Part shown: positions 18,576 through 45,883 of the stretch, piece after piece
How the letters are laid out: each line of letters opens with the position of its first letter
Numbering within the stretch: position 1 is the first letter of the stretch
Assembly (NCBI GenBank): GCA_034432155.1
Contig: DAOUCP010000098.1
Coordinates: forward strand, 583 to 64,582
DNA: 64,000 nucleotides
DNA from: Anaerolineae bacterium
GTDB taxonomy: Bacteria; Chloroflexota; Anaerolineae; Epilineales; Epilineaceae
Direction: 5' to 3'
The notes under the pieces: model-generated
Database searches by the model: none
What the model saw: the letters and a program-made list of their open reading frames with translations, nothing else
What the model was told of the DNA's origin: nothing
Position numbers and translations under genes: made by a program

Positions 18576-19004
18576 TCATGTGAGTGGATTGGTGTAACGG
18601 ACTCCAGCGAATCGTCCGAAGTCGGGATCACTGGAGCAGATCTCCGCGCCGTGCTCGAGGGCGATCGCCGCTAGATGGGCATCGCTGGTGAGGTTGCCCG
18701 CAGTTCCCAACGGCGCCAGGAGGCCCCGGAGAATGGCGAAGTGGCGGGGCGTTGGATTCAGAATGGTCGCGCACGGTCGAGCGAGCCAGGCCTCGAGCAC
18801 CTCGAAGGCCTCGTCCGGCTCGAGTGGATGGGGGAAGATCGCCGGTCGTGTGCTGAGGCGCAAGAACGCCAGTAGGACAACCCACGTGAAGGCGACCGTC
18901 TCGGAGCCGGACAGAGCCTGCTCCAACCAGGACCTCGCGGCTGCGTGGCAGGGCGCATCCTCGTTGACGGCATAGAGCAGGAGGTTAGCGTCGACCAGCT
19001 TCAC
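18576..19004 (-). CDS. vapC: PIN-domain ribonuclease toxin VapC
   Basis: Begins MKLVDANLLLYA and ends TSDAHLAAIALEHGAEICSSDPDFGRF, which is PIN-domain architecture. Confidence 0.85.
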   Translation of the reverse strand: MKLVDANLLLYAVNEDAPCHAAARSWLEQALSGSETVAFTWVVLLAFLRLSTRPAIFPHPLEPDEAFEVLEAWLARPCATILNPTPRHFAILRGLLAPLGTAGNLTSDAHLAAIALEHGAEICSSDPDFGRFAGVRYTNPLT

Positions 19005-19264
19005 TTGCCCACGCTCAGCCTGCGCGCGATCTCGTGGTCTTCGAGAGCTGCCGCCAGCGACAGCGCCCGATCCAGCGACGCCTCCGGGCGGAAGCCCATG
19101 CGGAACGTGCGCTGCACGAACCTTTCCTGGGGGCTGCTCGCGCCAACCAACAGTGCTGATCTCAGGGCCTGGTTCAGCGCCTCCTTGAACGAGATACCCT
19201 GCTCGCGCATACGATTGCGGATCAGGGCCTCCACATCTGGGTCTAGGGTCACGGTGGTTCGCAT
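19001..19264 (-). CDS. vapB: VapB-type antitoxin
   Basis: 87-aa ORF overlapping the vapC start by 4 nt. It is in the usual position for a type II toxin-antitoxin antitoxin. Confidence 0.75.
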   Translation of the reverse strand: MRTTVTLDPDVEALIRNRMREQGISFKEALNQALRSALLVGASSPQERFVQRTFRMGFRPEASLDRALSLAAALEDHEIARRLSVGK

Positions 19265-19320
19265 GCCAACATCATAGCATCAGCCTGGTAGCTGTCAAGA
19301 TGATGCCGCGACAGGCCTCC

Positions 19321-19586: not shown

Positions 19587-20423
19587 TCAGGATTGGCGCG
19601 GTCGCCCGACTGCCAGGACGGCCAGGAAGATCAGCGTCGCCGTGAGCACGATGGCCGCGCCGGAGGCCACACCAAGGTAGTATGACGCGTACAGCCCGAT
19701 CACGCCCGAGGCAGCGGCCACAAAAGCCGAGAGCGCCATCATGGCCGGCAACCGACGGGTGACGAGCGAAGCGGTAGCTGCCGGCGTGACCAACATGGCT
19801 ACCATCAGGGCCACGCCGACGGTCTGGAGGGAGATGGCGACCGTCACGGCAACGAGTACGAGCAGGAGGTTGTCGAAGAGTGCTGCTGGCAGGCGCAGCG
19901 TCGATGCCAGGACCGGATCGAAGGAGATGACCAAGAACTCCTTGTAGAAGGCGACGATGACCAGGAGGACCAAGGCACCGAAACCGCCGATCCAGACCAG
20001 CGACCGCGGGCCGACTCCCAGCACGTCGCCGAATAAGAAGTGACTCAAGTCCACCGCGTAGCTTCGCACCGTCGAGATGATGGCGATGCCAAGGGCGAAC
20101 ATCCCGGCGAAGATGACACCGATCGCCGTGTCCTCTTTGATGCGCCCTGTCCGGCGAACCGCGCCGATGCCCAACGATGCCACCACCGCGGTACCCAACG
20201 CCCACCAGAAGAGTGGCTCGCGGCTTCCGCCGCCCACCAGGTAGCCCACCGCCACGCCCGGCAGCACGCTGTGCGCCAACGCATCGCCGAAGAAGGCCAT
20301 GCCGCGGAGGACGACGTAGGTCCCCACCACCGCGCACACTGTGCCCGCCATGAGAACGGCCACCAGGCCCCGCTGCATGAACCCGTAGCGCAAAGGGTCG
20401 GCCAGCCAATCAGTGAGCGGCAT
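19587..20423 (-). CDS. znuB: Metal (Zn/Mn) ABC transporter permease
   Basis: 278-aa polytopic membrane protein of the ZnuB/MntB/TroC family. Confidence 0.85.
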   Translation of the reverse strand: MPLTDWLADPLRYGFMQRGLVAVLMAGTVCAVVGTYVVLRGMAFFGDALAHSVLPGVAVGYLVGGGSREPLFWWALGTAVVASLGIGAVRRTGRIKEDTAIGVIFAGMFALGIAIISTVRSYAVDLSHFLFGDVLGVGPRSLVWIGGFGALVLLVIVAFYKEFLVISFDPVLASTLRLPAALFDNLLLVLVAVTVAISLQTVGVALMVAMLVTPAATASLVTRRLPAMMALSAFVAAASGVIGLYASYYLGVASGAAIVLTATLIFLAVLAVGRPRQS

Positions 20424-21276
20424 GCCGGTCGCCCTCGCAACACGTATCCGCCACCACGTGATCGTCGACGATGGTCAACGCGGGGCCGTACGCTTCTCGC
20501 AAGAATGCCGACCGCATGACCACCTCGGCGGTGCCGAAGGCCACGAGCCGACGGTTAAGGAGCAGGATCCGGTCAAAGTAGCGTGCCGCCTGCTCGAGGT
20601 CGTGGGTGGCCACCATCACCGTCACCTTGGCGTGGCGCAGACGCTCCAGAAGTGCCAGCAGGCCCTCCTGAGCCGGTGCGTCCAGACCGGCGAGCGGCTC
20701 GTCCATTAGGAGCAGCTCCGATTCTTGGGCCAGGGCGCGAGCGATGAACATCCGCTGCTGCTGCCCGCCAGAAAGCTCCGCGATGTGGCGATCCGCCAGG
20801 TCGGCAATGCCGACCGTCGCCAGCGTCGTACGGACGAATTCCCAGTCTCGCTTCTTCGGCCAGCCGAAGAGACCCAGCTTGGCGATCCGCCCCATCATGA
20901 CGACATCGGCCACCGACACTGGGAAATGCCAATCGACCTGGTTGCGCTGCGGAACGTAGGCGATGCACACGTGCCCACTGGGCCCCGAGCCGTAGACCGT
21001 CACCTCACCTTCGTCCGGGCGCAGGACGCCGGCGATGACTTTGAAGAGGGTGCTCTTGCCTGCGCCGTTCGGACCCACCACGGCGATCCGCTCGCCAGGG
21101 TGGAGGTGGAAGCTCACCCCTTCGAGTGCGGCGAGGCCGTGGTACCGAACCGTCAGGCCACGCACGTCGAGAATGCGTTGGTCCGGTTTGTGGACCGAGT
21201 GGCGGTACACGGCGAGGGTCCGCCTGGTCCGATTCCGCCTTCTGCCGAACGAGCGAGCAAGAGAGAGTCTCGTCAC
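20410..21276 (-). CDS. znuC: Metal ABC transporter ATP-binding protein
   Basis: Walker A (GPNGAGKST), the LSGGQQQR signature and Walker B (LLLMDEP). The start codon is uncertain. Confidence 0.85.
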   Translation of the reverse strand: MTRLSLARSFGRRRNRTRRTLAVYRHSVHKPDQRILDVRGLTVRYHGLAALEGVSFHLHPGERIAVVGPNGAGKSTLFKVIAGVLRPDEGEVTVYGSGPSGHVCIAYVPQRNQVDWHFPVSVADVVMMGRIAKLGLFGWPKKRDWEFVRTTLATVGIADLADRHIAELSGGQQQRMFIARALAQESELLLMDEPLAGLDAPAQEGLLALLERLRHAKVTVMVATHDLEQAARYFDRILLLNRRLVAFGTAEVVMRSAFLREAYGPALTIVDDHVVADTCCEGDRHAAH

Positions 21277-22274
21277 TTCAATCCTTCTGCGATGGCCGTG
21301 ACATTGTACTGCATGTATTTCAGGTAGGTATCAGCCTTCCCACCCGGTTCACTCAGCGAACCCGTGTAAATGCGCACCACCTGGATCCCCGTGTCGTTGG
21401 CCACTTGTTCGGCCAGAGTTGGATTGGCGCTCATGCCAACGAAAATTGCCGGGACCCGCGCGGCGCGGATCCGCTCCTCGAGTTGGGCGAGCTCTCGCGC
21501 CGAGGGCGATGCGTTGCTGCTGAACGAGCCGATGAGCGCGCCGACCTGTTGAAAGCCATACTCCTGGGCGAAGTAGCCGAACACGAGATGATCGCTGACC
21601 AGTCTGCGTCGCTCGGGCGGGATCGGGGCCACCCGCACGCGGATCCAGGCATCGAGTTCGCGCAAACGTCCGGCGTAGGCCTCCGCGTTGGCCCGGTATG
21701 CCGCGGCGTGCGCGGGGTCGGCCTCGGAGAGGGCAGCAGCGATGTTCTCTGTCCAGACGATCACGTTGTTGGGATCGGTCCAGGTGTGGGGATCGCCACC
21801 CTCGTGATGGTGGTCGGCCGCCGTGGGGCCGCGCTCGTCCTCGGGTTCGCCTTCTTGGGGTTCCTCGCCTTGGCTGCCGTGTTGGCCGTCGCCGAGCTGC
21901 AGCGGTGGAATGCCCTCCGAGGCATGGACAACGGTGCCCCGGGCGTTGGATTCCAGTACGGGAGCGAGCGCCTCCTCCAGGCCTAGACCGTTGATGACGA
22001 TGACATCGGCGGCACCGATGACCGCCACGTCCTCGGGTCTGGGCTGAAAGGTGTGGGGGTCGCTGCCGGGCGGGAACAGAACCGTGCAGTCGATCCCGTC
22101 GCCGCCAACTTGGGCCACAACGTCCCCGACGATGGTTGTCGAAGCGACCACCCTGAGAGGACTCGGCCCGCCACCCAGCTCGCCGCGGCAGGCCGCGGGC
22201 AAGAAGGTGCCGATGATCCCGACGATGGCCGCGAGGCCGACGAGAAGAAGTCTGTGTCCGTGCGCGGTCACCAT
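21273..22274 (-). CDS. znuA: Metal ABC transporter substrate-binding protein (ZnuA/TroA family) with a His-rich loop
   Basis: Signal peptide plus a His/acidic loop (DHHHEGGDPH) typical of zinc-binding ZnuA. Confidence 0.85.
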   Translation of the reverse strand: MVTAHGHRLLLVGLAAIVGIIGTFLPAACRGELGGGPSPLRVVASTTIVGDVVAQVGGDGIDCTVLFPPGSDPHTFQPRPEDVAVIGAADVIVINGLGLEEALAPVLESNARGTVVHASEGIPPLQLGDGQHGSQGEEPQEGEPEDERGPTAADHHHEGGDPHTWTDPNNVIVWTENIAAALSEADPAHAAAYRANAEAYAGRLRELDAWIRVRVAPIPPERRRLVSDHLVFGYFAQEYGFQQVGALIGSFSSNASPSARELAQLEERIRAARVPAIFVGMSANPTLAEQVANDTGIQVVRIYTGSLSEPGGKADTYLKYMQYNVTAIAEGLK

Positions 22275-23068: not shown

Positions 23069-23159
23069 GGGCGGGCTGTCCGAGCTGCAGCCGCGGTCTA
23101 GGCCTGAATCAAGCGGTGCGCCATCGCGATCGCCTTGCAGGGGTCTCGGAGGCCGTGTC

Positions 23160-23600
23160 TGTCAAGGCGGTGCAAATGCGAGGGTGCTCCCCTTCGGGTA
23201 TGCGGTTAGCGGATGGGCGCGAAGGGGAACGGCGGGGCGGCTTCAAGACGGTCCGTTGCGGTCGGATCCGAGAGCGCCATCGACTCGTGGCTGAAATACC
23301 GTCGGTCGAGCTGCCACTCGTCGTCGATCTCCTGCAGGATCGTGCCGACCAGGCGAATCACGGACTCGTCGTCAGGGAAGATGCCGACGACGTTCGTCCG
23401 TCGCCGGACCTCCTTGTTGACTCTCTCCAGCGGGTTGGTCCAGTCGATCCTCGACCCGTGCGTTGGCGGGAAGGCCATGGTTGCCAGTACGCCGTTGCCT
23501 CCCTTTCGTCTGGAACGGACATTCGCCGAAAGGAAGTACACGGTGGCTCTCCTTGTCCACTCCGCCCAAGTACACCACTCCCTGAGACACTAGCCAATAC
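23160..23600 (-). mobile_element. 3' remnant of an IS256-family insertion sequence
   Basis: Encodes a transposase C-terminus (TNPLERVNKEVRRRTNVVGIFPDDESVIRLVGTILQEIDDEW). The terminal ~75 nt recur at 35018-35100. Confidence 0.6.
23206..23541 (-). pseudogene. IS256-family transposase, C-terminal 111-aa fragment
   Basis: Only the C-terminal domain is present. Upstream there is no continuation in any frame. Confidence 0.6.
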
Positions 23601-31440: not shown

Positions 31441-32254
31441 GATGGTGGCCACCATCTGCTACCTCTCGGTGTTCGCCTTCGGACTGACGCACGGATTCTC
31501 TGGGCTCCTGTTCGCCTCACTCACACTCCTCGCCGTCGCTGCCTGGGGCAACATCGGCCATTTGCGATCACGTCTGCCGGGCATCAGCTCGGGAAATGCC
31601 GGCACAAGAATGGTCTCCTGGGCAGTTCTGATCGCTGCGGCAGCCTTGACCGGGCTGATGGCAATTGCCGGTAGCGCCGAGCCCAGTGCAGCACCAAAGG
31701 GCGCAGAGAGTCCACAGCCCCCCGGGCTCGTCGACCAGCCCACAAGCGAGGCGACCGGGTTTCCGACCTCCCCGCCGAGCCCGACTTGGGCTCGCCCAAC
31801 GTGGACGAAGGGCACGCTGCTGCCGCCACCGACCGCTACGGGCGTGCCAGCGACGGCCACACGGACCTCAACGCCCGTACCGCCCACCGAGGCACCGGCA
31901 GTGGATCTAGACCCGTACGCCGACCGCAACTGTGACGAGTTCGACAACTACGGCCAGATGCAGGCGTGGCGTCTCTATTGGCAGCGCCGTGGGGTGCCCA
32001 ATCCGGGCAACTTGGATGGGGATGGCGATGGTTTGGCCTGTGAGGAGGGTGAAGGTGGCCGACCGGCGCCTCCGCCTTCGCCCCTTCCGTTCGCGCAGCC
32101 AGCAGCTCCGGTGGCGCCGCCGCCTGCGGCGCAGCCTCCTGCACGCGGCTGCTGCAGGTACTGTACACCGGGAAAGTCCAAGGCCTGTGGTGACGCCTGT
32201 ATCTCGATCAACAAGGAGTGCCACAAGGAGCCGGGCTGTGCCTGCGACGGCTGA
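31441..32254 (+). CDS. Membrane protein with an Excalibur Ca-binding domain and a Cys-rich, metallothionein-like C-terminal tail
   Basis: Three predicted transmembrane helices and a P/T-rich linker. The Excalibur domain reads DRNCDEFDNYGQMQAW...DGDGDGLACE. The tail is CCRYCTPGKSKACGDACISINKECHKEPGCACDG. Confidence 0.7.
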
Positions 32255-32312
32255 GCGCCAGGCGGCATTGAAGCGATATGCGGGTCACAGCGCAGGGTGG
32301 CAGCGCTGCCCT

Positions 32313-33623
32313 ATGAGTTGGCTCTCCATACCCATCACCGTCGCCAGTCTGGCGGTGTCTCTGGGCGCCTGCTGCCTTGGCCGGCCCCCGCCTGCTGCCG
32401 GCCCCAGCTCGAGGAGATCTGCGGACACGACCGCGGCAACCGCCGAGGCACGAGCAGAGGGGCGCTCCGTCTCGCCCAAAGAGAGGTCGGTCGAGGTGGC
32501 CATCGCGGCCGAAACCCAGCAGGCGGCGATGGCAGGCTGGCCGGACTTCCGCACGTACGTCCATCGGCTCGTGCGGTACCAGCGCCGCGTGCCGTACTCC
32601 GCGCTCGGTCCGGACACCTGGGACGCCATCTCGGAGGCCGATGCAGCTACGAGCACCGACGGCCGCGTGCGCACTCTGTACTGCGACCAATGGCTGCCCG
32701 TTGCCAGCCGGGTCAACCAGTGGTGGGAACGGGAGCACCTGTGGCCCCGCTCCCTGGGCGACTTCGCCGACGAACCGTGCGACTTCGTCTTCACCGACCT
32801 CCACAATTTGTTCGCGACCGAGCCGGGCATCAACGCTGCTCGCGGGAATCTGCCCTTTGGCTATTGCACAATGCCCGATTGTGTGCCGAAGCGCTGCGCG
32901 CCCGATGGGCCCGAGAATCGGATGCGCGGCGGTGTGGATGGCGTCTGGGAAGTGTGGCCTGGCCGGCGAGGCGACGTAGCGCGAACGCTCCTGTACATGG
33001 ACGTCCGATACGAAGGCGGGCTGAATGAACTCACCGGCTGCCCGGAACCGGACCTGGTCCTCACCGATGACCGCTCGCTCATCGTGTCCACGTCCCGTAG
33101 GACGGCATACATGGGGTTGTTGAGCGATCTCGTAGCTTGGCATTGGGAGGACCCGGTGGACGATGCCGAGCGCCGCCGCAATGACGTCATCGAGCGTCAC
33201 CAGGGGAACCGCAACCCCTTCGTCGACCATCCGGATTGGGTCCGCCGGGTATTCCCACCCACCTTGGGCCCGGGGACGCCGAGAGCCGCGAGCCCCGGTG
33301 GCGCCGCGGAGGACAGGGTGCCCCCCGACGCCTGGGGCGCACCGGCCGATGGCTTGCCAAGCGGCTCCCGGGACGCGGCCACGGACAGCATGGCCGTGGA
33401 AGCTGGCCTCGCCCGGCCGGTGCCTTTGCTCGGGACAGCCTTTCCCGAGCCTATGGCAGCTGCAAGCGGGAGCCCCAACCGTGGGCACCAGACCTGTGAG
33501 GGCTACCGCCCGTGTCAGGAGTTCGCAACGCAGGATGAGGCGCAGGCGTACTTCGAGGCGTGCGGCCGACCCAACCGCATGGACGGCGACGGAGACGGCC
33601 GCGCCTGCGAGAACTTGCCGTAA
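32313..33623 (+). CDS. Extracellular endonuclease I family nuclease lipoprotein with a C-terminal Excalibur domain
   Basis: Lipobox (SLGAC), endonuclease I-family motifs (EREHLWPRSLG, DLHNLF, NAARGN), then CQEFATQDEAQAYF...DGDGDGRACE. Confidence 0.8.
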   Translation: MSWLSIPITVASLAVSLGACCLGRPPPAAGPSSRRSADTTAATAEARAEGRSVSPKERSVEVAIAAETQQAAMAGWPDFRTYVHRLVRYQRRVPYSALGPDTWDAISEADAATSTDGRVRTLYCDQWLPVASRVNQWWEREHLWPRSLGDFADEPCDFVFTDLHNLFATEPGINAARGNLPFGYCTMPDCVPKRCAPDGPENRMRGGVDGVWEVWPGRRGDVARTLLYMDVRYEGGLNELTGCPEPDLVLTDDRSLIVSTSRRTAYMGLLSDLVAWHWEDPVDDAERRRNDVIERHQGNRNPFVDHPDWVRRVFPPTLGPGTPRAASPGGAAEDRVPPDAWGAPADGLPSGSRDAATDSMAVEAGLARPVPLLGTAFPEPMAAASGSPNRGHQTCEGYRPCQEFATQDEAQAYFEACGRPNRMDGDGDGRACENLP

Positions 33624-34252: not shown

Positions 34253-34576
34253 TCAATGTCCAATGACACTATCGATCCACTTGATGTAATCAGGCGATCC
34301 GCGTCCAACAAGTAGCTCAAGAATCTCAGGTGTCGTATATGCGTGATGCCTGCTTATGAAAGCCTGAAGAGCCTCGTAGTGATCTGCGCGTGTCTTGATC
34401 AATAGCAAGTACTCTGGCTCTATGCACATCTCACCCTGCCACATATAGATGCTCCGTATGGGGATGAGTTGTACACAGGCAGCCAGTCGCTCTGTGATGA
34501 TCTTCTTTGCTAGCTCGATGGCGGTCTCCTCGTTCGAAGTCGTTGTCAAGACAACAGAGTACTCCATCTTCGGCTC
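34253..34576 (-). CDS. cutA: Divalent-cation tolerance protein CutA
   Basis: The sequence MEYSVVLTTTSNEETAIELAKKIITERLAACVQLIPIRSIYMWQGEMCIEPEYLLLIKT is typical of CutA1. It lies in a ~48% GC islet. The ORF is open to 34720, but the conserved part starts near 34576. Confidence 0.8.
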   Translation of the reverse strand, partial: EPKMEYSVVLTTTSNEETAIELAKKIITERLAACVQLIPIRSIYMWQGEMCIEPEYLLLIKTRADHYEALQAFISRHHAYTTPEILELLVGRGSPDYIKWIDSVIGH

Positions 34577-35017
34577 CATGATCACCTCCGCGGATTCATG
34601 CCAATCGGTAGAGGCACTATGATTGTCGGAGAACTTTATACCCTCGAGAACCATGGTGCCACCGTCGAGTGATAATGACAAGAAGGAGGAGGTAGCGTCA
34701 TCAATGTATCGCCTAAGCACCTGTCGCGCAAGCCCTCGATGGTGATGAGGGAGGGTTTCTCATGCCCGGGGCGGCCAGTCGTCCGTGTCACGCACGGCCG
34801 CGGCTGCGCCCTTGCGGACCCTGGGCCCGGTGTCCGCCTCGTTCTTAGGCGGCAGAGCAGCCAGTGCCTATGCCGTCGCCAGGGTTCGTTCAGCCCGCGA
34901 AGACGGGCGACGGCGGCCCTCGAGCGGTCGGCTGTCATTCGGTCCGATACGTCAGCGTGGTGTTAGTGGGATCGCCCGGCCAGTCGCGAGGGCCCGCAAC
35001 CTTCTGGGCCGTGTTTG

Positions 35018-35100
35018 TCAAGCTGGCGTAAATGCGAGTGCGCTCCCCTTCGGGTATGTGGCTAGCGGATGGGCGCCAAGGTGAACCGCGCGGATGCTTC
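35018..35100. mobile_element. Second copy of the IS256-family terminal segment (end remnant only)
   Basis: About 75 nt align to 23160-23245 (aaatgcgagtgcgctccccttcgggtatgtggctagcggatgggcgc...). Confidence 0.5.
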
Positions 35101-35939
35101 TGGACGCCGTGAGCACAAGACGAGCGGATTGACAGGGTCGCAAGCGCCCGCGCGCATTGGATGGTCCATCGCCTTGGCACTATGGCTGCCACGACTCCAC
35201 CAGCTGTGGCTAGCTGCCGGCGGTGACGGCGCGACGATGGCGGCCATGGCAACGCCGCCGACGTCTGCTGCCGCCGGGTGCATGGGGAGACCTAGCGCAA
35301 CGCAGCATGCCGACCAGCAAGGATCGGTAGCCCCGAGCCGATCATGAGATCCTCGGACGGCGGAATCGGAAGGCACCGGTTGACCGATCGCCGGAGGGCC
35401 TACGGCCAGCCAGCCGACCAGCGGAGGGTCTCCAGCCCGCCAGCGATTCGAGGGCACACAGCGTACACGTACTTGGCGGGGGTGGACGGGGCGTGGCCGA
35501 AGCCGTCTCCCGCCGTTGGACTCCTATCCACGACAACGGGCGGCGTGGTCGCGGGTCAAGGCTCCTCGGACCAGGCGTATCCCCCGCGTCGCGCAGCCGA
35601 TTCGGGCCCAGTTCGCCACGCCGGACTCAGACCGCAACCACAAGCCCCGTTCGCCGGCTCAAACTTGTGCGAGCACTAGTGTTGGCGCTGCAACGCCGCA
35701 CCGCGGTTCAGCGGCGACCGCTGCATCCCCGATGCGGGTCGTCGCGTCCGAGTCGCCGGTGGCGGCGTGCTGGTCCGCATGCCGAGCTCGCTGCCCGCGC
35801 GCATTGAGGCTACCTTAGCTGGCGGGGTCCCCCAAAGGCAAGGCCTGCGCGCGACGCCAAGGCAACCCAGAAGCTGCAGGCAAGCCCGGTCAGACTCGCG
35901 CCGCGAGGGTGCCGGCTCGAGATTGCGGCGGCGGCAGTC

Positions 35940-36182
35940 TCACGGCGACCGGTAGCCACTGCCCGGGCCGCTCTCGAACGTGCCCGGCGAGGGTGCCAGG
36001 GTAACATCCAAGAGCGTGCCGTACCTGCGCAAGACCGGCGCTCTGTATCGCTTCTTGCCGTGGCTTCCGCTTTTCGGGTTACCGTGGGCGCTCGGAACCT
36101 GAATCTTGCCCTCGTTGTGCCTCAACTCCAGACTCCCACCACCTAACTCGTCCCGTGGTCGCACCGCCGCATCCGTTAGCAC
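35940..36182 (-). CDS. Lasso peptide precursor (A peptide)
   Basis: The leader ends ...KKRYRAPVLRRYGTLLDVTL, an exact match to the YxxPxLx3Gx5Tx lasso leader motif with Thr at -2. The predicted core is APSPGTFESGPGSGYRSP (Ala1, Glu8). The GTG start abuts the cyclase stop. A TTG at 36125 is an alternative start. Confidence 0.55.
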   Translation of the reverse strand: MLTDAAVRPRDELGGGSLELRHNEGKIQVPSAHGNPKSGSHGKKRYRAPVLRRYGTLLDVTLAPSPGTFESGPGSGYRSP

Positions 36183-38051
36183 TTACCAGTGGCGGCGCAG
36201 CCACAGCTCCAAGCAGCAGCACAGCCAGAACCAATGCTCCGTTCGACGAGTGAGTGTACCATCTGCCAGCGCGGCCGCCAAGTAGTCGGGCCGAATCATC
36301 GACCGCGCCACAATCTGCGGCTCCGTCATGAGGGCCTCCACTGCCGCCCGTTCCCTCTCCATTCCGCGCTGAAAGAGCGGCAGAAAGCTGGTGCGCTCCC
36401 GCCTGGCCAGTACCGCCTCGGGGAGCCATCCCTTAAGAGCTTGCCGATGCAACCAGCGGTCCCAGCCAGGTCGGGCTAGTTGATCGGCCGGCAAAGCCAT
36501 CATGAACTCGACCAGTCGCCGGTCCCAGTACGGCATGACCAGCTCCAGGCCGTGCCGGTTGTAAGCCTTGCGTGTCGCCGCAACACCGGCGGCGAACCAG
36601 CCATGCATCAGGCTGCGATAGCGCGGCCACTGGCCCGGTCGCGGAAAGTCGTTCCAACGCTGGCGGGCCTCGATCCGCTCCACCAAACGCGTCCGCCGAA
36701 CGAAATCAGGGTGGAGGGCAGGGTTCTGCGGCGCTGCCGGCCGCGGCCGCAAGCGCCGGTAAGCCCTGGCCGCCCGCCGCGGGATCAGCGGCCGTAGTCC
36801 GCAGTCCAGCATGTCGCGCTGCCAGCGGACGGCGCCCCTGTGGTCCCAGAGCAGCCGCGCGAGCGCGCCGAGGCGGCCCTCGCGGACCATGTCGAGGGCC
36901 CAGTAGGCGCCGCCTGTGAACAGGACGTCGCCGTAATAGCCGGCCAAGAGGACGCGGCAGCCAGCTGCCTCGGCGGCTTCCATGACCGCCTCCGGCAGCC
37001 ATGCGTAGGGATCCCGCAGGACAGTGGCGCGCTCGACGGGCCATGCCTCCAGGTTGCGCAAGGTCCAGCGATCGTCGCACGGGATGTACGTTGCCGCGAT
37101 CTCACTCCGCTTCACGACCGGTTCGATGTAGCGACGCTCGTCGCAGCTCACAAGCTCATCAAACACGTAGGAAAAGGAGCAGAGCTGCGGCTGGTCGAGC
37201 CCGGACTGGGGGAGAAGGGCCGCGGTCAGCGCGGCAAGGGCCGTGGAATCCAGGCCGCCACTCAGCGAAACGCCGACCGGGCCGATGGTGCGAAGTCGGC
37301 AGCGAATTGCCCCCGCCAGCAGGACACTGTAATGCTCGGCGTAGTCCTGGTCGCTGCGATAGCGAATGCGCTGCTCCGGATTCACGTCCCAGTATCGCCA
37401 CTTGCGCACGCCGTTGGCCGTGATGGCGAGGCAATGCGCTGGCGGCAGGAAGCAGATACCTTGGTAGAACGTCGCCTCGTGCTCTTCGCCGACGACCGCC
37501 AGCATGTCCGCCACCGACTCCTCGTTCAGTCTGGGCTGGACAGCCGGGTGAGCCAGAAGCTGGTCGATTTCGGAAGCGACGAGAACGAGTCTGCCCTGCA
37601 CACAGTAGCACAGATCGCGGACGCCCAGGGGGTCGCGAGTCACGAACAGCTGGCGCTGCCGGCGATCCCAGATGGCCACGGCGAAGTCGCCGAGTAGCCT
37701 CTCGACACAAGCCGTTCCCCACTTGCGGTAGGCCCAGAGAATGAGCTGGGCATCGGTTGGGGACCGGTCCTGCTGGATCCAATCGCCCAGGCTTGCCAGG
37801 AGTTCGGTTCGATTGTCGAGCCGCGCGTCGCACACCAGAGCGCACTGGGCCGGACCGTCGAAGAGAGGCTGCCTCTCGCCGACCTCTTCGGGAGTGAGCC
37901 AGAAGTGCTGATGAGCCAACGCCACGCCATCACCGAGCCACACTTCCTGGCCGTCGGGGCCACGATGGCGACTGGCAGCCAGTATGTGCTCCACTACGGC
38001 CCGCTCGACAGGCGCACCATCGAGGTGGACCACTGCCAGGATGCCGCTCAT
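36183..38051 (-). CDS. Lasso peptide cyclase (asparagine synthetase B homolog without the N-terminal Cys nucleophile)
   Basis: 622-aa AsnB-family protein starting MSGILAV (Ser, not Cys, at position 2) with an SGGLDS PP-loop ATP-binding motif. Followed directly by the precursor ORF. Confidence 0.8.
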   Translation of the reverse strand: MSGILAVVHLDGAPVERAVVEHILAASRHRGPDGQEVWLGDGVALAHQHFWLTPEEVGERQPLFDGPAQCALVCDARLDNRTELLASLGDWIQQDRSPTDAQLILWAYRKWGTACVERLLGDFAVAIWDRRQRQLFVTRDPLGVRDLCYCVQGRLVLVASEIDQLLAHPAVQPRLNEESVADMLAVVGEEHEATFYQGICFLPPAHCLAITANGVRKWRYWDVNPEQRIRYRSDQDYAEHYSVLLAGAIRCRLRTIGPVGVSLSGGLDSTALAALTAALLPQSGLDQPQLCSFSYVFDELVSCDERRYIEPVVKRSEIAATYIPCDDRWTLRNLEAWPVERATVLRDPYAWLPEAVMEAAEAAGCRVLLAGYYGDVLFTGGAYWALDMVREGRLGALARLLWDHRGAVRWQRDMLDCGLRPLIPRRAARAYRRLRPRPAAPQNPALHPDFVRRTRLVERIEARQRWNDFPRPGQWPRYRSLMHGWFAAGVAATRKAYNRHGLELVMPYWDRRLVEFMMALPADQLARPGWDRWLHRQALKGWLPEAVLARRERTSFLPLFQRGMERERAAVEALMTEPQIVARSMIRPDYLAAALADGTLTRRTEHWFWLCCCLELWLRRHW

Positions 38052-38177
38052 GGCGAAGGTCGCGCCCTATCGATCGAGTGCCGCTCTTGGTGGGCGCCGC
38101 TCAGGAGTACCAGGCCCCCGCTGAGTGGCCGCTCTCGGCTCAGGCGGTGGCTGTCGCCACCAGGGCATGGACCTGGC

Positions 38178-41100
38178 TTAGGGACGCCCCGGTTCCACCA
38201 CCAGAGCTGGATCGCCCAGGAGCGTCCAGCCCATTTGGACGTCGATCAGGCCGGGCAGCTCACGCGCCAGCTCCCGCTTGGCGTCGCGAATGGCCGCTCC
38301 GATAGTCATGCCAGGTCGGGCCAGCTTCGGCATCAGGCGCACCGCCAACGCTCGCTCGGCCGACTCGGTGGCGAGCGATGTCGGGCCCATCGTGGCCACG
38401 GCAGCGTTGGTGCCCCCCAGCAACAGAAGGTCGTTCAGGGTGTCGAACTTTGGCTGGAGATAGTAGGTATTGTAGCATCCCCACTGAGTGACGACGGTCG
38501 GCTTGCCGAAGTTTGTAAGCAACTTCGCTTGTTCACTTGTCAGCAGGTAGTTGAATGACCAGACAGCGGAACTCGAGTGCCCCACGTAGTTGGTGAGTGC
38601 CATTCCGCTATTGACGGATTCCTGCAGTGCTGTCTGGGCCTGCGACACAGTCAGTTCGTCGAGATGGACCCGCTGGCAGGTCCAGTCCTCGGGCAGCCCT
38701 GCCCTCATGATCTCGCTCGTGTCCCTGAAGGACCGATCGGCAGCGAACACGGCCCGCCGACGGTAGGTCTTGGTCTCATACGCCCGCATCTTCTCAACCA
38801 GGTTGGCCAGTTCGGCCGAGGTGCGCACTGGCAGGCGTCCAACGGCCAAGTCCGGCACACCATCGTCGTCCACGTCGGCGTACCATGGGTCGGCCGGCAA
38901 GAACAGGGTCCTGTCACTCGGGACGAAGGGGGTCGGGAGGAAGCTGATGCCGCCGTGGCCGGGAGTCCCCAAGTAGTCGTACGTGTCATCTCCAACCAAA
39001 AGGACGTATTCGGTCCCCATGTTGCGCGAGGCATAGCGAATGTAGTCTCGCAACGGCTCCGGACCGAAAATGCCATCTCCGAACTGATTGTATACGTCGC
39101 GCACGTCGACGATCTTGACGGTAAAGCCCTGTGCCTGGCGCGCCGCCACCAAAGGCGCCAAGCCGTCAATGAAGTCAGGATGGCTGACGATCAGGTACTG
39201 CGCCACCCCGGACGTGAGGTCGACGATGGGCCGTACGGAGTTGATCCGCGGGGCGAGAAACCCCGGTCCGGAAGCGAGCACGTAGCTGGCCCGATCCGGA
39301 CTGCCGCGAAACGTCACGCTGTACGAACCGCCGGCTGCGGCCACGGTAGGGGAAGCCAGGAACGTCGGCTGGCCGTCCACCAGGCGATAGACGGCGACAT
39401 CTGGGCTCGGCAAGTTCGTGACGCGGAATGCCGAACCGACGCCGGTGAACATCAAACGGCCATCGCGGGCGACAAACGCCCGCGGATAGGTGAGGCTGTA
39501 CCGATCCAACGCCAGCATGTCCCACTTGGCGCCGCGATCGGCCGGCAGTGCGATGGCCATCGTGTTGGTGCCGTCGTGGACCAAACCGCGGGGCAGGGTG
39601 ACCTCCACCACCTCCACCTCGAAGGCGTCGAACACGACGTCGGCCACTGGCGTGCCATTGAGCGCGATCTGCACGTGATGGTCGGGCCCAGGCAGCATAT
39701 CGCTGAGCCCCCACAACTCGACTCTGAGGACAGGCGGCTCGCCTTCGGGCACCAGGTGGTCCACTTCAATGGTGAAGCCGTCCCACGTCTTCGGTTGGCG
39801 ATAAACCAGCAGCATCGTGTCGTACCATGGGTCGCCATTCGGCGACACATCGGCGTAGTCGCGGTCACGGTTGACCTGGGATGTCTCCAGGTAATACGTC
39901 GGAATTGTGACGCTGCGGCCAGGCTTCGCGGCGTCGCGGTCCATCCGCTTCGCTCCCGGTCCGGCCACCTCGAGGCGGTACACGTTTGTATGGCTGTACA
40001 GCGTGTTCAGCCGGACACCGTAAAACTCCAGGAAGCTCCCAGGCCCCATCAACTCTGGGCCGCCGAACCGAAGGGGCACCGGCCGGCCGCGATTGCTCAA
40101 GGCCAAAAGCGATCGGGGTACCCCGGTGAGATCCAACCCGGCGGCCTGCAGCATCTCGTTGGTCACGCGGTACACGCCGTCCGTTTCCACCAAGAACTCG
40201 CATGCCGGATAGCCCAGAAGTCCGCTCACCGCTTTGCGTGCCACCGTCACGGCCGCCAGGCGGCGCCGCTCAACCGCTGCACGTTGCAGCGACTTTCGTT
40301 CGTGCTCAGCCCACACTGCTGACCAGTTTGTCGGCTCGATCCACAGGCGCCCGCCATAGGTTTGGCCTAGGGCAAATGGGCCGTGTAGGCGCGTGCGGCC
40401 CTGCGTGTCGACGTCTTCCAAATAGAAGATCTCTCCGGCCACGCCGGCGACGCGGAACGAGTACTCTTGGGGCACCGCGGAGTTCACCACCTTCGATGGA
40501 ATGATCTCCGCGTTCAGTCTCCGCGGTTGCCGATTGGCTTCGACGTACAGATTGAAACCAGCGTTGAGCTCCTCCGTTGCTGTCTGCCAGTCAAAGCGAA
40601 CATGCCCGTCCTCACGGCTGGCTTGGAAGAACGCCAATGTGACCGGTGCCGTCACCGACACGCTCCCGCAGTTGTTGGCTCGGTTGGGCTCTTCCTGTTT
40701 GGCCTGCGGCGTCGGCGCCACGCAGGCCGTGTTCTGCAAAACGCCGGTGCCCGGGTCGTCCGGATGCAGGCGCACCCAGATGCGGAAGGTGATGCTGTTG
40801 CCGCTGCCCACCCCCAGGGCCGCTATCTCGCACGTGACCAGGCCGCCATACGTTGTGCCCGGCGTTCCGCTGTACGTACAGCCTGCGGGCAGTGCGTGAT
40901 CCGGATCGACGGTGAGGTTAGCGGGAAGACCGTCGGTGACCAGAGCCGCCGGCTGGCCGGGAGACGTGGAGGTCAGGCTGTCGGGTCCGTAGTTCGTGAC
41001 GGTGATGTCGTAGTAAAACGGCAACGGCACACACGGGCCGCTGCTGCAATCCCACTGGACACTCGTGACACTGGACGTTTTGGTCGTGGCCAGGTCGACG

Positions 41101-42065
41101 AGATCATGGTGGTTGCCGAAGTTGTAGGCCGAGTAGGTCCCACCGGCTGAGACCGTAACCTGATGATAGCCGACCACCGGATAGGTCTGCGTCCAGTAGG
41201 CCTGTTGGACTTCGCGGATGTAGTGCGTCCCCGGATAGGCGTAGAGAGTATACGATCCGTCCGCTGCAGTGGTTGTGGAGGCGATGACGGTGCTGCACGC
41301 CGAGTCTGCGCAGAGCTGCACGGTCCAGCCGGAGAGGGCTGACTCATCGCCATCCCACACCCTGTCACTGTCCTTGTCTTCCCACTTGTAGCCGCTGATC
41401 ATTGCCCGTGCGATTGCCGTGGTCATGATCGAGAGCGTGCCACCACCGGTGACGCCGGTCAGGCTTGTCTGAAGAGACGCACCGGGCCATTGACTCGCTC
41501 CGCGACATCCGGGAATGGTGTCCGGCGGCGCGATGTACAGCCCCCAGTACAAATAGGCCGTGGTCGCCAAGGCGGTAAACGTTACCTCGAGGTACCGCTG
41601 GACTCCATCGCCGACGTCGAAAGGTCCCGAGACCTGCGTGATGTTCGCGCCACTCGTGTAGAAGTTTCCATAACCACCCGGGATGGGATCGTCGATCTGC
41701 AGCGGAGCTCCAGGAGTTGGAAACCCTTGCCGAGTCTGATCATATGTTGCGAGATGATCGAATCCGCATGTATTTGTAGAAGCGTAATAGTAGTCGTAGT
41801 AAATCTGAAAAGTGTAAGAATTGCCGACGGTGATCCTCGAGATCTCTACGTAGTGTGGAACAACATCGGTCTCGAAGTAATCTGAGTTGGTATTGTTGAG
41901 AGCACCTTTTGTCCAACTGAAACTAGGCTTCGTCGCCAGATGGTAGAAGTTCGCAGCCTGTGCCGATGCCACCGTCGGGATCAGGAAGACTGCCACCATC
42001 AGGGCGAAGGCTATCTTTCGCGTCGCTGGTCGCCTCCAGCCCCCGCCCAAGCTTGTCCATGACAT
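38178..42065 (-). CDS. Large secreted multi-domain protein (SdrD/CnaB-type and DUF11-like repeats) with a C-terminal peptidase C25 (gingipain-like) domain
   Basis: Strong AGGAGG RBS and a signal peptide (MSWTSLGGGWRRPATRKIAFALMVAVFLIPTVASAQA). An ISGYKWEDKDSDRVWDGDE motif is present. The C-terminal region (VLLVGDDTYDYLG...DVDDDGVPDLAVGRLPVRT...YVGHSSS) matches clan CD/C25 topology. Confidence 0.8.
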   Translation of the reverse strand: MSWTSLGGGWRRPATRKIAFALMVAVFLIPTVASAQAANFYHLATKPSFSWTKGALNNTNSDYFETDVVPHYVEISRITVGNSYTFQIYYDYYYASTNTCGFDHLATYDQTRQGFPTPGAPLQIDDPIPGGYGNFYTSGANITQVSGPFDVGDGVQRYLEVTFTALATTAYLYWGLYIAPPDTIPGCRGASQWPGASLQTSLTGVTGGGTLSIMTTAIARAMISGYKWEDKDSDRVWDGDESALSGWTVQLCADSACSTVIASTTTAADGSYTLYAYPGTHYIREVQQAYWTQTYPVVGYHQVTVSAGGTYSAYNFGNHHDLVDLATTKTSSVTSVQWDCSSGPCVPLPFYYDITVTNYGPDSLTSTSPGQPAALVTDGLPANLTVDPDHALPAGCTYSGTPGTTYGGLVTCEIAALGVGSGNSITFRIWVRLHPDDPGTGVLQNTACVAPTPQAKQEEPNRANNCGSVSVTAPVTLAFFQASREDGHVRFDWQTATEELNAGFNLYVEANRQPRRLNAEIIPSKVVNSAVPQEYSFRVAGVAGEIFYLEDVDTQGRTRLHGPFALGQTYGGRLWIEPTNWSAVWAEHERKSLQRAAVERRRLAAVTVARKAVSGLLGYPACEFLVETDGVYRVTNEMLQAAGLDLTGVPRSLLALSNRGRPVPLRFGGPELMGPGSFLEFYGVRLNTLYSHTNVYRLEVAGPGAKRMDRDAAKPGRSVTIPTYYLETSQVNRDRDYADVSPNGDPWYDTMLLVYRQPKTWDGFTIEVDHLVPEGEPPVLRVELWGLSDMLPGPDHHVQIALNGTPVADVVFDAFEVEVVEVTLPRGLVHDGTNTMAIALPADRGAKWDMLALDRYSLTYPRAFVARDGRLMFTGVGSAFRVTNLPSPDVAVYRLVDGQPTFLASPTVAAAGGSYSVTFRGSPDRASYVLASGPGFLAPRINSVRPIVDLTSGVAQYLIVSHPDFIDGLAPLVAARQAQGFTVKIVDVRDVYNQFGDGIFGPEPLRDYIRYASRNMGTEYVLLVGDDTYDYLGTPGHGGISFLPTPFVPSDRTLFLPADPWYADVDDDGVPDLAVGRLPVRTSAELANLVEKMRAYETKTYRRRAVFAADRSFRDTSEIMRAGLPEDWTCQRVHLDELTVSQAQTALQESVNSGMALTNYVGHSSSAVWSFNYLLTSEQAKLLTNFGKPTVVTQWGCYNTYYLQPKFDTLNDLLLLGGTNAAVATMGPTSLATESAERALAVRLMPKLARPGMTIGAAIRDAKRELARELPGLIDVQMGWTLLGDPALVVEPGRP

Positions 42066-42537
42066 GGTCTCTACCTCCTCTTTCGTGCCTGGCAGACAGC
42101 CTCCGGAGCATGCGCCGCCACGGGCCAGGGGGAGCCGCAAGTCACCTTTGCGACCACCTTCGTCTCCCACCAATTCGGCTCCCGCTCGCCGATCACGGGC
42201 CGCAGGCACCGTCTGGCCACCACGCCCCTGGCCGGCACTGCATTCGGCGTCACGGCGCACACTTTGGGAGCGTCGCCGAAGGACCGGTGGTCCAGGCCGT
42301 TCGTGGTCTCTCTGCCGGTTGCCAGGATACGGTTCCGCCTGACGGTGCCCAGCAGCACAGCTTCCACGCTCGACCGACCTTCCAAGTTGTCCCGGATCTC
42401 CGTGCCCGAGGCGACGTGGGCCCGATTCGACCTCCGGCTGGTGCGAGTCACGGTGAACATCGGGCTAGCGCCGTGGCTTCCGACCCGAGACCCTCACGTG
42501 CCCCACATGCAAGAGTCCCGTGATCGCCGCAGCCGCA

Positions 42538-43280
42538 TCAAGTATATAATCTCGCACCCGTGATGCGCCAACCGGTCCGAGCGCAAGGATGGCGCCGGCC
42601 TGGTCCATGCGCCTGCGACGGTTGATGGCCAGCGAAGAAGGCCACGACTGGCTTGATCATGCAGTGGCGGATGAAGGCTCCGGCGCGCTTCTCCTCGGCT
42701 CCGTCGATCTCGCCGATCAGCGCGACACGCATGGTCGCCGGACCGGTCTCCTGGAGGGCCAAAGGATGTCCGCGAAGATTGTGCCCGGCACTGTATCGCC
42801 TCCCATGACCGCAGCGGTGGCCTAGCCGATGCCACGCCGGCTGAGGGCAATGAGCGTATCGTAGGTCAATGTGCCACTGTGGCTGGCCATATCAACTGGG
42901 CCGAGCTGCACGATGCTGCCGGAATGGATCCCCAGCTCGGCCTCGCCCGGAGTGATAACGCTCCGCGAAACCAGGCCGACGAGGACCAGCTCACGACCGG
43001 CCGGAAGGCCATCCTCAGGCCATGTGCCGGGCCGGAACGCCCTCAGTGATAGGCACCATGACCGAACGCCGGCGTCGGCTGCCTCCGAGATCGAGTTCGC
43101 GCCATAGGGACCGGGGACGAAGATCACCCTTGCCTTGGCCAACGTGGCGCGGACCGCGTGCCACACGATGTCGAAGGCGGCAACGCCGGCCACCGTCCTA
43201 CGGGCCTTGGCCGGCGTCACTCCGGCAATCACTGCCGCTAGTCCGGCAGCAACAGGAACTCTTCGACTGGACACTCGCAC
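42538..43280 (-). pseudogene. Degraded succinyl-CoA synthetase alpha-like paralog (frameshifted)
   Basis: Two frames carry SucD-like segments (VIAGVTPAK...ITPGEAELGIHSGSIVQLGPVDMASHSGTLTYDTLIALSRRGIG and ALIGEIDGAEEKRAGAFIRHCMIKPVVAFFAGHQ). It is about 45% identical to the intact sucD at 1-608. Confidence 0.6.
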
Positions 43281-44562: not shown

Positions 44563-44884
44563 TCCTCGACCTCACCGCCATGTGCCAGACAGCATGCGTG
44601 CGCCTAGAACATCTGTCCCAATCCTAGCATCCGCAAACGCCGAGGGCAAACGCTGCCCGCTGACGCGGTGGCTCCGTCCGACAGGCGCAGATAACGGACT
44701 CCCGCCCATGCAGCCGAGCGCAATCGCCGGCGGCCATGTCCGTCACGTGACGCCAGACAGCCGTCGTGGTATACCCTCTCCCGCGAGCGGTCATCGGCAC
44801 CGGAGACGGTCCATCGGTCGTCGACGCCGACCCTCGCCTGCCCGTGAGCGGGCATCGGTGGAGTGGCCTCGAAAGGGGACAGCC

Positions 44885-45883
44885 ATGGAACAAGCAACCG
44901 CTTCCAGCAGCGTAGCCGCGTGGCTTACCGCCGGACTGCTGATGACGATCTTGCTCGGCCCGGCCGTGGCGCTGGATTCGCCCATCGGAAGGTCGGCGCC
45001 GGCTGCCTCCGCGATCGTGATCGACCACACCTGCACCGATCTCGCCCGCATACCGACGGACTGGATCGGAAGAGCGAAACGGCTCACCTTGCACTACGCG
45101 CACACATCGCATGGCTCCCAGCTGATCAGTGGGCTAGAGGACCTAGAGCGCATCGACCCCCAATATGACGTCGCGGTGCACACCAGCGCCACCGTCGGCC
45201 TGCCCTCGGCACCGGATGCATTGCGGATCTACGACGGCAATCCCGGCGCCACCTATATTACTCCCGAGCTCTACTGGGCATCGGCCGACGGCATCGCTCG
45301 TACGCGCGCGGTCGCCGACACCGGCCTGTTCGGCTTTTCGATGTGGGCATGGTGTGGCCAGCAGTCCTCCAACTCCGAGGGGCAGGTCCGGCAGTACCTC
45401 GACCAGTTGGACGAGTTCGAGCGGCTTTATCCCGCGATGCGCTTCATCTACATGACTGGCCACACCGACGGCGGCTCGGCCACGCTGACGCGCAACAACC
45501 AGTTGGTCCGGGACTACGTTCGGGCGCACGGCAAGGTCCTGTTCGACTTCGCCGATATCGAGAGCTACGACCCCGCCGGCAACTACCACCCTGAGACCAC
45601 CGACGCCTGCGACTGGTGCGAGGACTGGTGCCGGGTTCATCCCGAGGACTGTCGAAACCTGCCTTCGTCCTGCGCCCACTCGCACCCCTTGAACTGTCGC
45701 CGCAAAGGCTATGCCGTCTGGTGGCTGATGTCGCGCCTCGCTGGCTGGCCCGGGCCATCAGCCACCCCAGGCACTCCGCAGCCCACCGTCCAGCCTCTGC
45801 CAAGCAGGACCGTCGAACCACATCCGCTGACCGACTCGGCGATCTATCTGCCGGCCGTCTGGCACAGCGGCCCATCCAGCTGA
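44885..45883 (+). CDS. Secreted hypothetical protein with a Cys-rich C-terminal region
   Basis: Signal peptide (MEQATASSSVAAWLTAGLLMTILLGPAVA). The long 44114 ORF N-terminus was rejected. The protein ends ...AIYLPAVWHSGPSS. Confidence 0.6.
   Translation: MEQATASSSVAAWLTAGLLMTILLGPAVALDSPIGRSAPAASAIVIDHTCTDLARIPTDWIGRAKRLTLHYAHTSHGSQLISGLEDLERIDPQYDVAVHTSATVGLPSAPDALRIYDGNPGATYITPELYWASADGIARTRAVADTGLFGFSMWAWCGQQSSNSEGQVRQYLDQLDEFERLYPAMRFIYMTGHTDGGSATLTRNNQLVRDYVRAHGKVLFDFADIESYDPAGNYHPETTDACDWCEDWCRVHPEDCRNLPSSCAHSHPLNCRRKGYAVWWLMSRLAGWPGPSATPGTPQPTVQPLPSRTVEPHPLTDSAIYLPAVWHSGPSS

Follow-up and report, generated by a model that had tools for sequence, protein, structure and literature searches.

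A Predicted Lasso Peptide Module with a PorU-Like C25 Peptidase Partner and without Linked B Genes in an Anaerolineae Bacterium

Lasso peptides are sought as very stable scaffolds for drugs and probes. The described lasso clusters closest to the locus analyzed here are those of class II with a split B protein, namely, the paeninodin type, which comprises the genes A, HPrK-like kinase, B1, B2, C, and D, and the actinobacterial type with the gene order A-C-B1-B2; the AsnB-like cyclase (C protein) of these clusters lacks the Cys nucleophile (PMC9266682, PMC8498205). Their precursors combine a leader of the YxxPxLx3Gx5Tx type with a cysteine-free core whose first residue is small and whose residue 8 or 9 is acidic. 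According to reviews, every known lasso pathway involves a B peptidase, and the YxxPxL and Thr(-2) determinants of the leader are read in established lasso biosynthesis by B1 and B2 (PMC8498205). All these features of the cyclase and the precursor recur in a 64,000-nucleotide stretch of DNA from an Anaerolineae bacterium of the phylum Chloroflexota (contig DAOUCP010000098.1, positions 583 to 64,582), which is referred to below as the window. As in the paeninodin-type clusters, PqqD-like B1, transglutaminase-like B2 (NF033537), and HPrK-related P-loop genes are found in related loci. Unlike the split-B class II clusters, the window has no genes for B1, B2, the kinase, or an exporter, the C gene precedes the A gene, and a large secreted PorU-like peptidase of the C25 family is a conserved member of the module.

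The module consists of three contiguous genes on the minus strand (positions 35940-42065) that code for the C25 peptidase, the lasso cyclase, and the precursor, all of them intact and well conserved. It combines a cyclase of the clade described below with an adjacent PorU-like C25 peptidase and a precursor whose core follows the pattern x-[PSG]-[ST]-P-G-x-x-[ED]-S-G. Judging from these sequence comparisons, the locus belongs, with its genes intact, to a cross-phylum family of lasso clusters that is marked by the PorU-like C25 partner and by B genes that are frequently unlinked from the cluster. The family, delineated in uncultured Chloroflexota, Acidobacteriota, and Competibacteraceae and characterized by the core x-P-S/T-P-G-x-x-E/D-S-G, is a variant of lasso clusters without an earlier description and not a categorically new system. 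The mining rules of RODEO and antiSMASH depend on adjacent B and C genes, so that loci like the one in the window would be skipped. The locus can be regarded as being of moderate to high relevance for the biology of peptides that are ribosomally synthesized and posttranslationally modified (RiPPs).

The Lasso Cyclase and Its Precursor

The cyclase gene (36183..38051, minus strand) encodes an AsnB-like protein of 622 amino acids (aa) without a signal peptide, in which Pfam recognizes the GATase_6/7 and Asn_synthase domains. The translation begins with MSGILAV, with Ser2 replacing the Cys nucleophile, and contains the sequence SLSGGLDSTALAA at residues 262 to 274, which includes the PP-loop SGGLDS, an ATP pyrophosphatase motif (residues 264 to 269, encoded at 37245..37262). 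The original prediction had taken this combination as the mark of a lasso cyclase, and the NCBIfam models agree: the best of them is NF033535 (lasso peptide isopeptide bond-forming cyclase), with 469.4 bits and an E value of 2e-140, and the score for the asparagine synthase model TIGR01536 is 224.1 bits, under its cutoff of 267.1 bits. Related proteins were compared across 33 loci of the clade (given below with L numbers), which were gathered from representative genomes, metagenome contigs, and exact-protein look-ups. Residue 2 of the cyclase is Ser in 22 of 25 clade members, Ala in two, and Gly in one; Cys does not occur, so the full glutaminase active site expected of a true glutamine-hydrolyzing asparagine synthetase is not there. 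The PP-loop is invariant in 26 of 26 members.

The closest curated models, NF033535, NF033528 (lasso_cyano), and NF033521 (lasso_leader_L3), are all matched under their cutoffs. The cyclases of L001 (59% identical to the window protein), L005, and L015 likewise fall under the NF033535 cutoff. By its sequence, the module of the window can be assigned to a clade that neighbors the NF033535 family, not to that family itself.

A small open reading frame (ORF) of 80 codons (35940..36182, minus strand), whose GTG start abuts the TAA stop codon of the cyclase gene, ends with ...KKRYRAPVLRRYGTLLDVTLAPSPGTFESGPGSGYRSP. The C-terminal part of its product consists of the leader segment YRAPVLRRYGTLLDVTL followed by the core APSPGTFESGPGSGYRSP. 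The third-position GC periodicity of the cyclase frame runs through this ORF and then fades. The likeliest start is the TTG codon at 36125, which is preceded by GGTGGGAG; the gene would then occupy 35940..36125 and code for a 61-aa precursor made of a 43-aa leader and an 18-aa core, a length that fits the 59 to 75 aa of the called homologs. The recognition motif Y-RA-P-V-L-RRY-G-TLLDV-T-L (35997..36047) ends at the predicted cleavage site, and the predicted core follows at 35943..35996, with Ala1 at 35994-35996, Glu8 at 35973-35975, Tyr15 at 35952-35954, and Arg16 at 35949-35951. Glu8 is the only acidic residue of the core. There are no cysteines, so that the predicted peptide belongs to class II; its predicted mature mass is 1731.785 Da.

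The small ORF of L001 finds that of the window in a tblastn search with an E value of 1.5e-9. A phmmer search of 1.84e9 representative proteins with the precursor returned 31 matches at a library-wide E of 1e-3 or less, all of them 50 to 98 aa long and sharing the core [AS]P[ST]PGxFESGxGxG[FWY][RK]. Three of these library precursors were traced to their contigs, where the neighbor was an Asn_synthase gene or, on one contig of 1 kb, an unannotated cut-off ORF in the position of the cyclase. The same leader motif and core occur in about 30 related loci. In the alignment of 24 family precursors, no variation is seen in Y, P, L, and T(-2) of the leader or in the Ser that follows the acidic residue, and G is nearly invariant. 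The acceptor, located at core position 8 or 9, is Asp or Glu in every sequence, within the family core [GASN]-x-[ST]-P-G-x-x-[ED]-S-G...[FWY]-[RK]. The NCBIfam models lasso_leader_L3 and lasso_cyano match 20 and 7 of these 24 sequences, respectively; the window precursor scores 14.7 bits, compared with a curated cutoff of 33. The conservation argues far beyond chance for a genuine precursor. The claims made earlier for this ORF, that is, the Y-P-L-G-T leader next to the cyclase stop codon, the cleavage site, the ring between Ala1 and Glu8, and the Tyr15 plug, all fall on columns that are conserved in the family, and the pairing of a lasso-type cyclase with a precursor has thus gained support from the curated cyclase model, the library matches, and the related loci. 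Most simply, Tyr15 and Arg16, the [FWY]-[RK] pair of the family, would be two steric locks flanking the ring.

In the subfamily that includes the window, the core is conserved up to [FWY]15-[RK]16, and the tails beyond this pair range from 0 to more than 30 residues. Precursors of the Acidobacteriota type (L085, L088-L090, L086, L092, L080-L084) have Pro/Gly-rich C-terminal tails of 20 to 45 aa, far longer than typical lasso tails. Four library precursors (P0177, P0182, P0186, and P0190) have Val instead of the canonical Thr at leader position -2 (TVL, IVL, IVM, and VVL), and several other close relatives of the precursor have no Arg at position -5; these precursors are encoded on short contigs.

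The PorU-Like C25 Peptidase

Directly upstream of the cyclase gene is a gene (38178..42065, minus strand), not mentioned in the original prediction, that codes for a secreted multidomain cysteine peptidase of 1295 aa, the same length as that of the database protein P0122. It starts with an ATG at 42065, provided with an AGGAGG Shine-Dalgarno sequence, and its product begins with the Sec signal peptide MSWTSLGGGWRRPATRKIAFALMVAVFLIPTVASAQA. This is followed by a variable stalk of CLIPPER/DUF11 and SdrD_B domains (DUF11 and SdrD_B being recognized by Pfam) and a conserved PorU-like region of ~840 aa that ends in the C-terminal catalytic domain (Peptidase_C25, E = 6.6e-68). CLIPPER domains indicate extracellular placement (PMC12617251). 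Because the C25 proteins of the family combine them with signal peptides or membrane anchors, these peptidases are expected to be extracellular.

The AlphaFold2 model of the conserved 840-aa region has a pLDDT (predicted local distance difference test) of 90.6, and its best Foldseek match in the PDB is PorU of Porphyromonas gingivalis (6za2; E = 6.6e-30), the sortase of the type IX secretion system (T9SS), with which the modeled region superposes over 780 columns. The gingipains RgpB and Kgp match the model through the catalytic domain only (about 370 to 400 columns). All 23 C25 homologs that were aligned have the catalytic His (in the motif GHS) and Cys (in QWGC), which correspond to the catalytic residues of gingipain K, so the window protein has the PorU-type dyad along with the predicted multidomain PorU fold. 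It is not, however, a T9SS sortase in the curated sense: the best NCBIfam model, T9SS sortase PorU (NF033707), gives 137.9 bits against a cutoff of 420, the host belongs to Chloroflexota, and none of the window genes that were scanned was recognized as a T9SS gene. The protein further differs from PorU in its N-terminal stalk of CLIPPER and SdrD_B domains and in its partners, the lasso cyclase and precursor.

A C25 gene adjoins the cyclase gene in 29 of the 33 clade loci; in the remaining four, the sequence upstream extends for 1.9 kb at most. A reverse search with the C25 sequence alone yielded homologs of 45% and 41% identity that adjoin a cyclase and a precursor, and a homolog of 38% identity, with a GEVED/P_proprotein N terminus, that does not. 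The distance matrices of the cyclase and the C25 protein are correlated (Pearson coefficient of 0.92, Mantel p of about 2e-4, n = 23, including some near-duplicates), which indicates coinheritance and not by itself functional interaction. Its conserved position marks the C25 peptidase as an obligatory partner that is dedicated to these lasso clusters. In L089/L090, L003, and L099, a single cyclase-precursor pair is surrounded by two or three paralogs of the PorU-like C25 gene.

Isopeptidase clusters of the astexin AtxE2 type in Proteobacteria similarly have a peptidase gene conserved beside the lasso biosynthesis genes, which suggests that in the C25-linked family, too, the peptide itself might be the protease substrate. 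AtxE2 itself belongs to the serine peptidases, in the prolyl oligopeptidase family; the partner encoded in the window, in contrast, is a secreted cysteine peptidase of clan CD with PorU architecture. Searches of the literature found no paper that links lasso peptides to C25/gingipain-type peptidases and none that contains the core sequences of the family; a PorU-like cysteine peptidase partner is thus unreported for any RiPP in the literature searched, with the RODEO co-occurrence tables, where a prior mention is possible, lying outside that search.

The most likely, albeit speculative, role of the C25 peptidase would be to act on the exported peptide outside the cell, trimming or transferring its variable C-terminal tail; alternatively, and just as speculatively, the lasso peptide might control the C25 enzyme. 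A universal trimming of the tail after Arg/Lys16 was considered and rejected, given that many precursors, including the one in the window (...YRSP), end 1 or 2 residues past this pair and that more distant family members have no [FWY]-[RK] pair at all. Two more far-reaching readings can be put forward only tentatively. In the first, the C25 peptidase would define a new lasso subclass by contributing an integral step outside the cell, either as a sortase-like transpeptidase or trimming protease that cuts off the hypervariable tail after [FWY]-[RK] and might attach the peptide to the cell surface or with the peptide as its dedicated Arg/Lys-presenting inhibitor. In the second, the cyclase-precursor pairs without B genes would be kept by selection and would use the B proteins of another cluster. 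If the C25 enzyme does process or anchor the peptide or is regulated by it, lasso biology would gain a type of post-export step not seen before, and PorU-like enzymes a new function apart from type IX secretion. Pairs that rely on the B proteins of another cluster would be invisible to mining rules based on B-C linkage.

Gene Orders in the Family and the Missing B Genes

Members of the family are encoded in Chloroflexia, Ardenticatenaceae, "Candidatus Contendobacter" (Gammaproteobacteria), Thermoanaerobaculia, and other Acidobacteriota. The C-then-A order, which the original prediction had called atypical, is indeed unusual among characterized clusters but is the commonest one in the C25-linked family, where B1, B2, and the HPrK-like gene K usually come after A or before the C25 gene. 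The order C25-C-A-K-B1-B2 is found in L005, L080-083, L085, and L086 and, in part, in L096, which has no sequence upstream of C. In L001 and L073, which are among the closest relatives on long contigs, the order is B1-B2-C25-C-A-K. The arrangement C25-A-C-K, with no B1 or B2 within 5.7 to 10 kb, is seen in L074, L075, and L100 and, on a short contig with a flank of 1.7 kb, in L076. C25-C-A alone is found in the window and in L007; in L094, C-A is accompanied by a C25 gene downstream on the opposite strand.

The B1 genes of related loci are PqqD-like, and the B2 protein of related loci passes the curated lasso B2 model NF033537 (74.5 bits; cutoff, 33), which makes the group a bona fide lasso family. 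C25 occurs together with B1 and B2 genes in 12 loci. The usual B genes are not nearby in roughly half of the well-flanked relatives. Modules without B genes recur in L007, L074, L075, L100, and L094, where the search covered 5.7 to 10 kb of flank on one side or both (the flank was limited to 1.5 kb on one side of L094 and was lacking upstream in L007 and L075); such modules, with intact genes, occur in different phyla and in unrelated genomes. B genes at a distance are also represented. L002 has its B2 gene about 4 kb off on the other strand, and L004, with the order C25-C-A, has its sole B2 gene 7 kb off beside a second cyclase. L003, from a metagenome-assembled genome of Ardenticatenaceae, has the order C25-C-A-K with all four genes intact, but its B2 gene upstream has decayed; all that is left of it is a frameshifted C-terminal remnant, GGLEVHAWVVWQGAVLNDSPDVAQRYAVLD, which lies at 4531-4821 between two C25 genes.

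The product of gene K, a P-loop protein of ~310 aa, is encoded after the precursor or the cyclase in most relatives (for example, at 12155-13093 in L001 and at 12851-13780 in L100). Its affinities in NCBIfam, to HprK-related kinase A/B and SynChlorMet ScmC, are weak, and by analogy with the kinase of the paeninodin cluster, it may be a tailoring kinase. Second lasso-type cyclases are encoded within 10 kb in L004 (18936-21868, with its own B2) and L074 (2-766, minus strand), which may hint at B proteins being shared between clusters. Two small ORFs upstream of the C25 gene in L074, considered as divergent B1 and B2 genes, proved to be pieces of a frameshifted C25 N terminus, signal peptide included.

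The absence of B1, B2, and an exporter, previously stated for 8 kb around the module, extends to all 64 kb of the window. There, tblastn found no match to B1 or B2, and custom hidden Markov models (HMMs) for B1 (built from 27 sequences), B2 (17 sequences), K, and the precursor, run on all six frames with the --max option, detected no B1, B2, or K. The best match of the B2 model (E = 0.024, at 19004-19279) is not significant. Stop-tolerant translations of the 1.2-kb gap downstream of the precursor gene and of the 1.9 kb upstream of the C25 gene, searched in the same way, gave no sign of decayed K, B1, or B2 genes. The only ATP-binding cassette (ABC) ATPase in the window is the product of a znuC-like gene (20410-21276) next to that for ZnuA. 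This znuA/znuC-like zinc importer (20410-22274, minus strand) is ~15 kb away from the lasso module and unrelated to it.

On balance, the locus is probably a functional lasso module that uses B proteins encoded elsewhere in the genome, a reading held with moderate confidence. It is favored by the intactness and conservation of all three genes in the window, by the decay of the neighboring sucD copy, and by the recurrence of modules without B genes; the provision of B proteins in trans is made plausible by the same recurrence, by the retention of C25, C, A, and K in L003, and by the distant B2 genes in L002 and L004. The precursors encoded without B genes keep Y, P, L, and T(-2), the residues recognized by B1 and B2. 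Given the family assignment, a series of steps can be proposed by analogy with established lasso biosynthesis. A precursor of about 61 aa would be made, and its YxxPxLx3Gx5T leader would be bound by a PqqD-like B1; a transglutaminase-like B2 protease would then cut after Thr(-2)-Leu(-1). The AsnB-like cyclase would adenylate the side chain of Glu8 by means of its PP-loop and join it to the amine of Ala1, forming an 8-residue macrolactam with the tail threaded through it. With Tyr15 and Arg16 serving as steric locks, the product would be a class II lasso peptide of 1731.79 Da. B1 and B2, and likewise K, would be supplied from other parts of the genome. Outside the cell, the secreted C25 enzyme on its surface stalk would act on the exported peptide or be controlled by it.

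A number of observations weigh against this reading. Neither a PqqD-like B1 (the RiPP recognition element) nor a transglutaminase-like B2 is encoded in the window, B1 being present in related loci. No lasso exporter is visible in the 64-kb window, and an exporter is absent from most loci of the family, although the C25 peptidase is extracellular and the peptide would be made in the cytoplasm. The cyclase does not reach the curated cutoff of NF033535 (525 bits), and the evidence for the role of the C25 enzyme consists of conserved synteny and fold. The leader encoded in the window has Leu at position -5, where more than 90% of the family leaders have Arg; the sole other exception among the aligned precursors is that of L007, which is also without B genes, and this Leu could reflect relaxed constraint. 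Finally, a fragment of sucD (42500-43280, minus strand) sits upstream of the C25 gene, exactly where the closest relatives L001 and L073 carry B1-B2; it is a sign of an old rearrangement at this place, and a recent deletion of the B genes would look identical within the window.

The most serious alternative builds on the same observations. The original prediction described the locus as a relict, and a rearrangement might have removed B1-B2 (and K) and left a cyclase-precursor pair orphaned too recently to decay, in which case no lasso peptide would be made. In favor of such a loss are the lack of B1, B2, and K in all 64 kb, the sucD fragment in the position of B1-B2, the 1.2 kb of gene-free DNA after A where many relatives have K-B1-B2, the missing Arg(-5), and the remnant in L003, which shows that B2 decay is possible in this family. 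However, none of the three reading frames, those for C25 (3.9 kb), the cyclase (1.9 kb), and the precursor, is interrupted. The window cyclase departs from the clade at only 5 of the 126 columns that are conserved in at least 85% of its members, which is as low as in any of the loci with B genes, whose cyclases depart at 4.0 to 12.5% of such columns. The catalytic dyad of C25 is intact, and Y/P/L/T(-2), Glu8, and Tyr15-Arg16 are kept; the neighboring copy of sucD, by contrast, is frameshifted and 32% diverged. There is no trace of decayed B or K genes, and the occurrence of modules without B genes, but with all other genes intact, in several phyla would be unexpected for random relicts. A relict is accordingly not the best reading and is considerably less probable than a working module; the associated suggestion that the cluster was truncated holds insofar as a loss is possible and the B1-B2 position is taken by the sucD fragment, but it is at odds with the intact genes and the lack of remnants.

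Maturation without any B protein, in which another protease, such as the adjacent C25 enzyme, would remove the leader and the module would be self-sufficient, seems quite improbable. It draws on the fact that the eleven loci without B genes or poor in them that were compared share no genes other than C25, C, and A (with or without K), and on the intact dyad of C25 as a cysteine protease. However, C25 proteins carry a Sec signal peptide or a membrane anchor together with an extracellular stalk (PMC12617251), whereas the cyclase, an adenylating PP-loop enzyme without a signal peptide, should need ATP, so that the two should not meet. Further, C25 coexists with B1 and B2 in 12 loci and hence does not replace them, the B1-binding YxxPxL motif is retained where B genes are missing, and reviews assign a B peptidase to all known lasso pathways (PMC8498205). 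The C25 peptidase is discounted as a leader peptidase on account of its extracellular location, as opposed to the cytoplasmic cyclase, and of its coexistence with B1/B2. Finally, an ordinary asparagine synthetase or amidotransferase next to a chance ORF, suggested by the bare GATase and Asn_synthase domains in Pfam, the public annotation of homologs as asparagine synthase, and the abundance of spurious ORFs in GC-rich DNA, can practically be dismissed, because the Cys nucleophile is replaced throughout the clade (by Ser2 in the window protein), the TIGR01536 score is under its cutoff and less than half of the lasso cyclase score, and the small ORF, whose protein sequence is conserved across phyla (library-wide E down to 7.5e-9), adjoins the cyclase in all cases.

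Flanking DNA

The DNA past the precursor gene (34721..35939), the location of K-B1-B2 in many relatives, contains 1.2 kb without any recognizable gene; it shows no coding periodicity, its profile of third-position GC is flat, and it has no match in Pfam or Rfam and no trace of K, B1, or B2 by HMM. Of the earlier statement that the downstream DNA is free of ORFs and ends in a remnant of an insertion sequence, the second half is not supported: Pfam found no transposase on 20 ORFs over 33.6-35.9 kb, a scan of the downstream DNA for inverted repeats revealed no terminal ones, and the gap is followed by cutA (34253-34720; CutA1, E = 7.5e-34) and then by a gene for a secreted Endonuclease_1/Excalibur protein (31932-33623). 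Rfam gave nothing at the gathering threshold over 30-47 kb and nothing at an E value of 1 or less over 34.6-36.2 kb. A consensus scan detected no promoter-like site, the five terminator-like sites found compare with 4.5 expected from shuffles and do not include any at operon ends, and the 146 nucleotides (nt) past the precursor stop codon yielded no significant structure on folding.

Within the gap lies one copy (35008-35105) of a dispersed two-copy repeat of ~95 nt with a CCCCTTCGGG hairpin; the other copy, 83% identical, is at 23152-23250, and both are on the plus strand. Rfam does not recognize the repeat, and folding predicted no significant structure for it. On the other side of the module, the frameshifted sucD pseudogene fragment (succinyl-CoA synthetase alpha subunit) is recognized by a CoA_binding domain on the ORF 42822-43280 and has disrupted frames; over 458 nt, it is 68% identical to the sucD gene at positions 52-506 of the window.

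The window has a GC content of ~66%. Its SucC protein (679-1842) has its closest named relatives in Anaerolineae, Ardenticatenaceae, and Ardenticatena, with 58 to 64% identity. The gene at 44882-45883 on the plus strand codes for a likely secreted protein of unassigned function that begins with MEQATASSSVAAWLTAGLL...; its product is 28% identical over 134 aa to that of a gene beside the lasso module of L075 (13246-14892, minus strand), and it may be a loosely associated neighbor of such modules or a coincidence.

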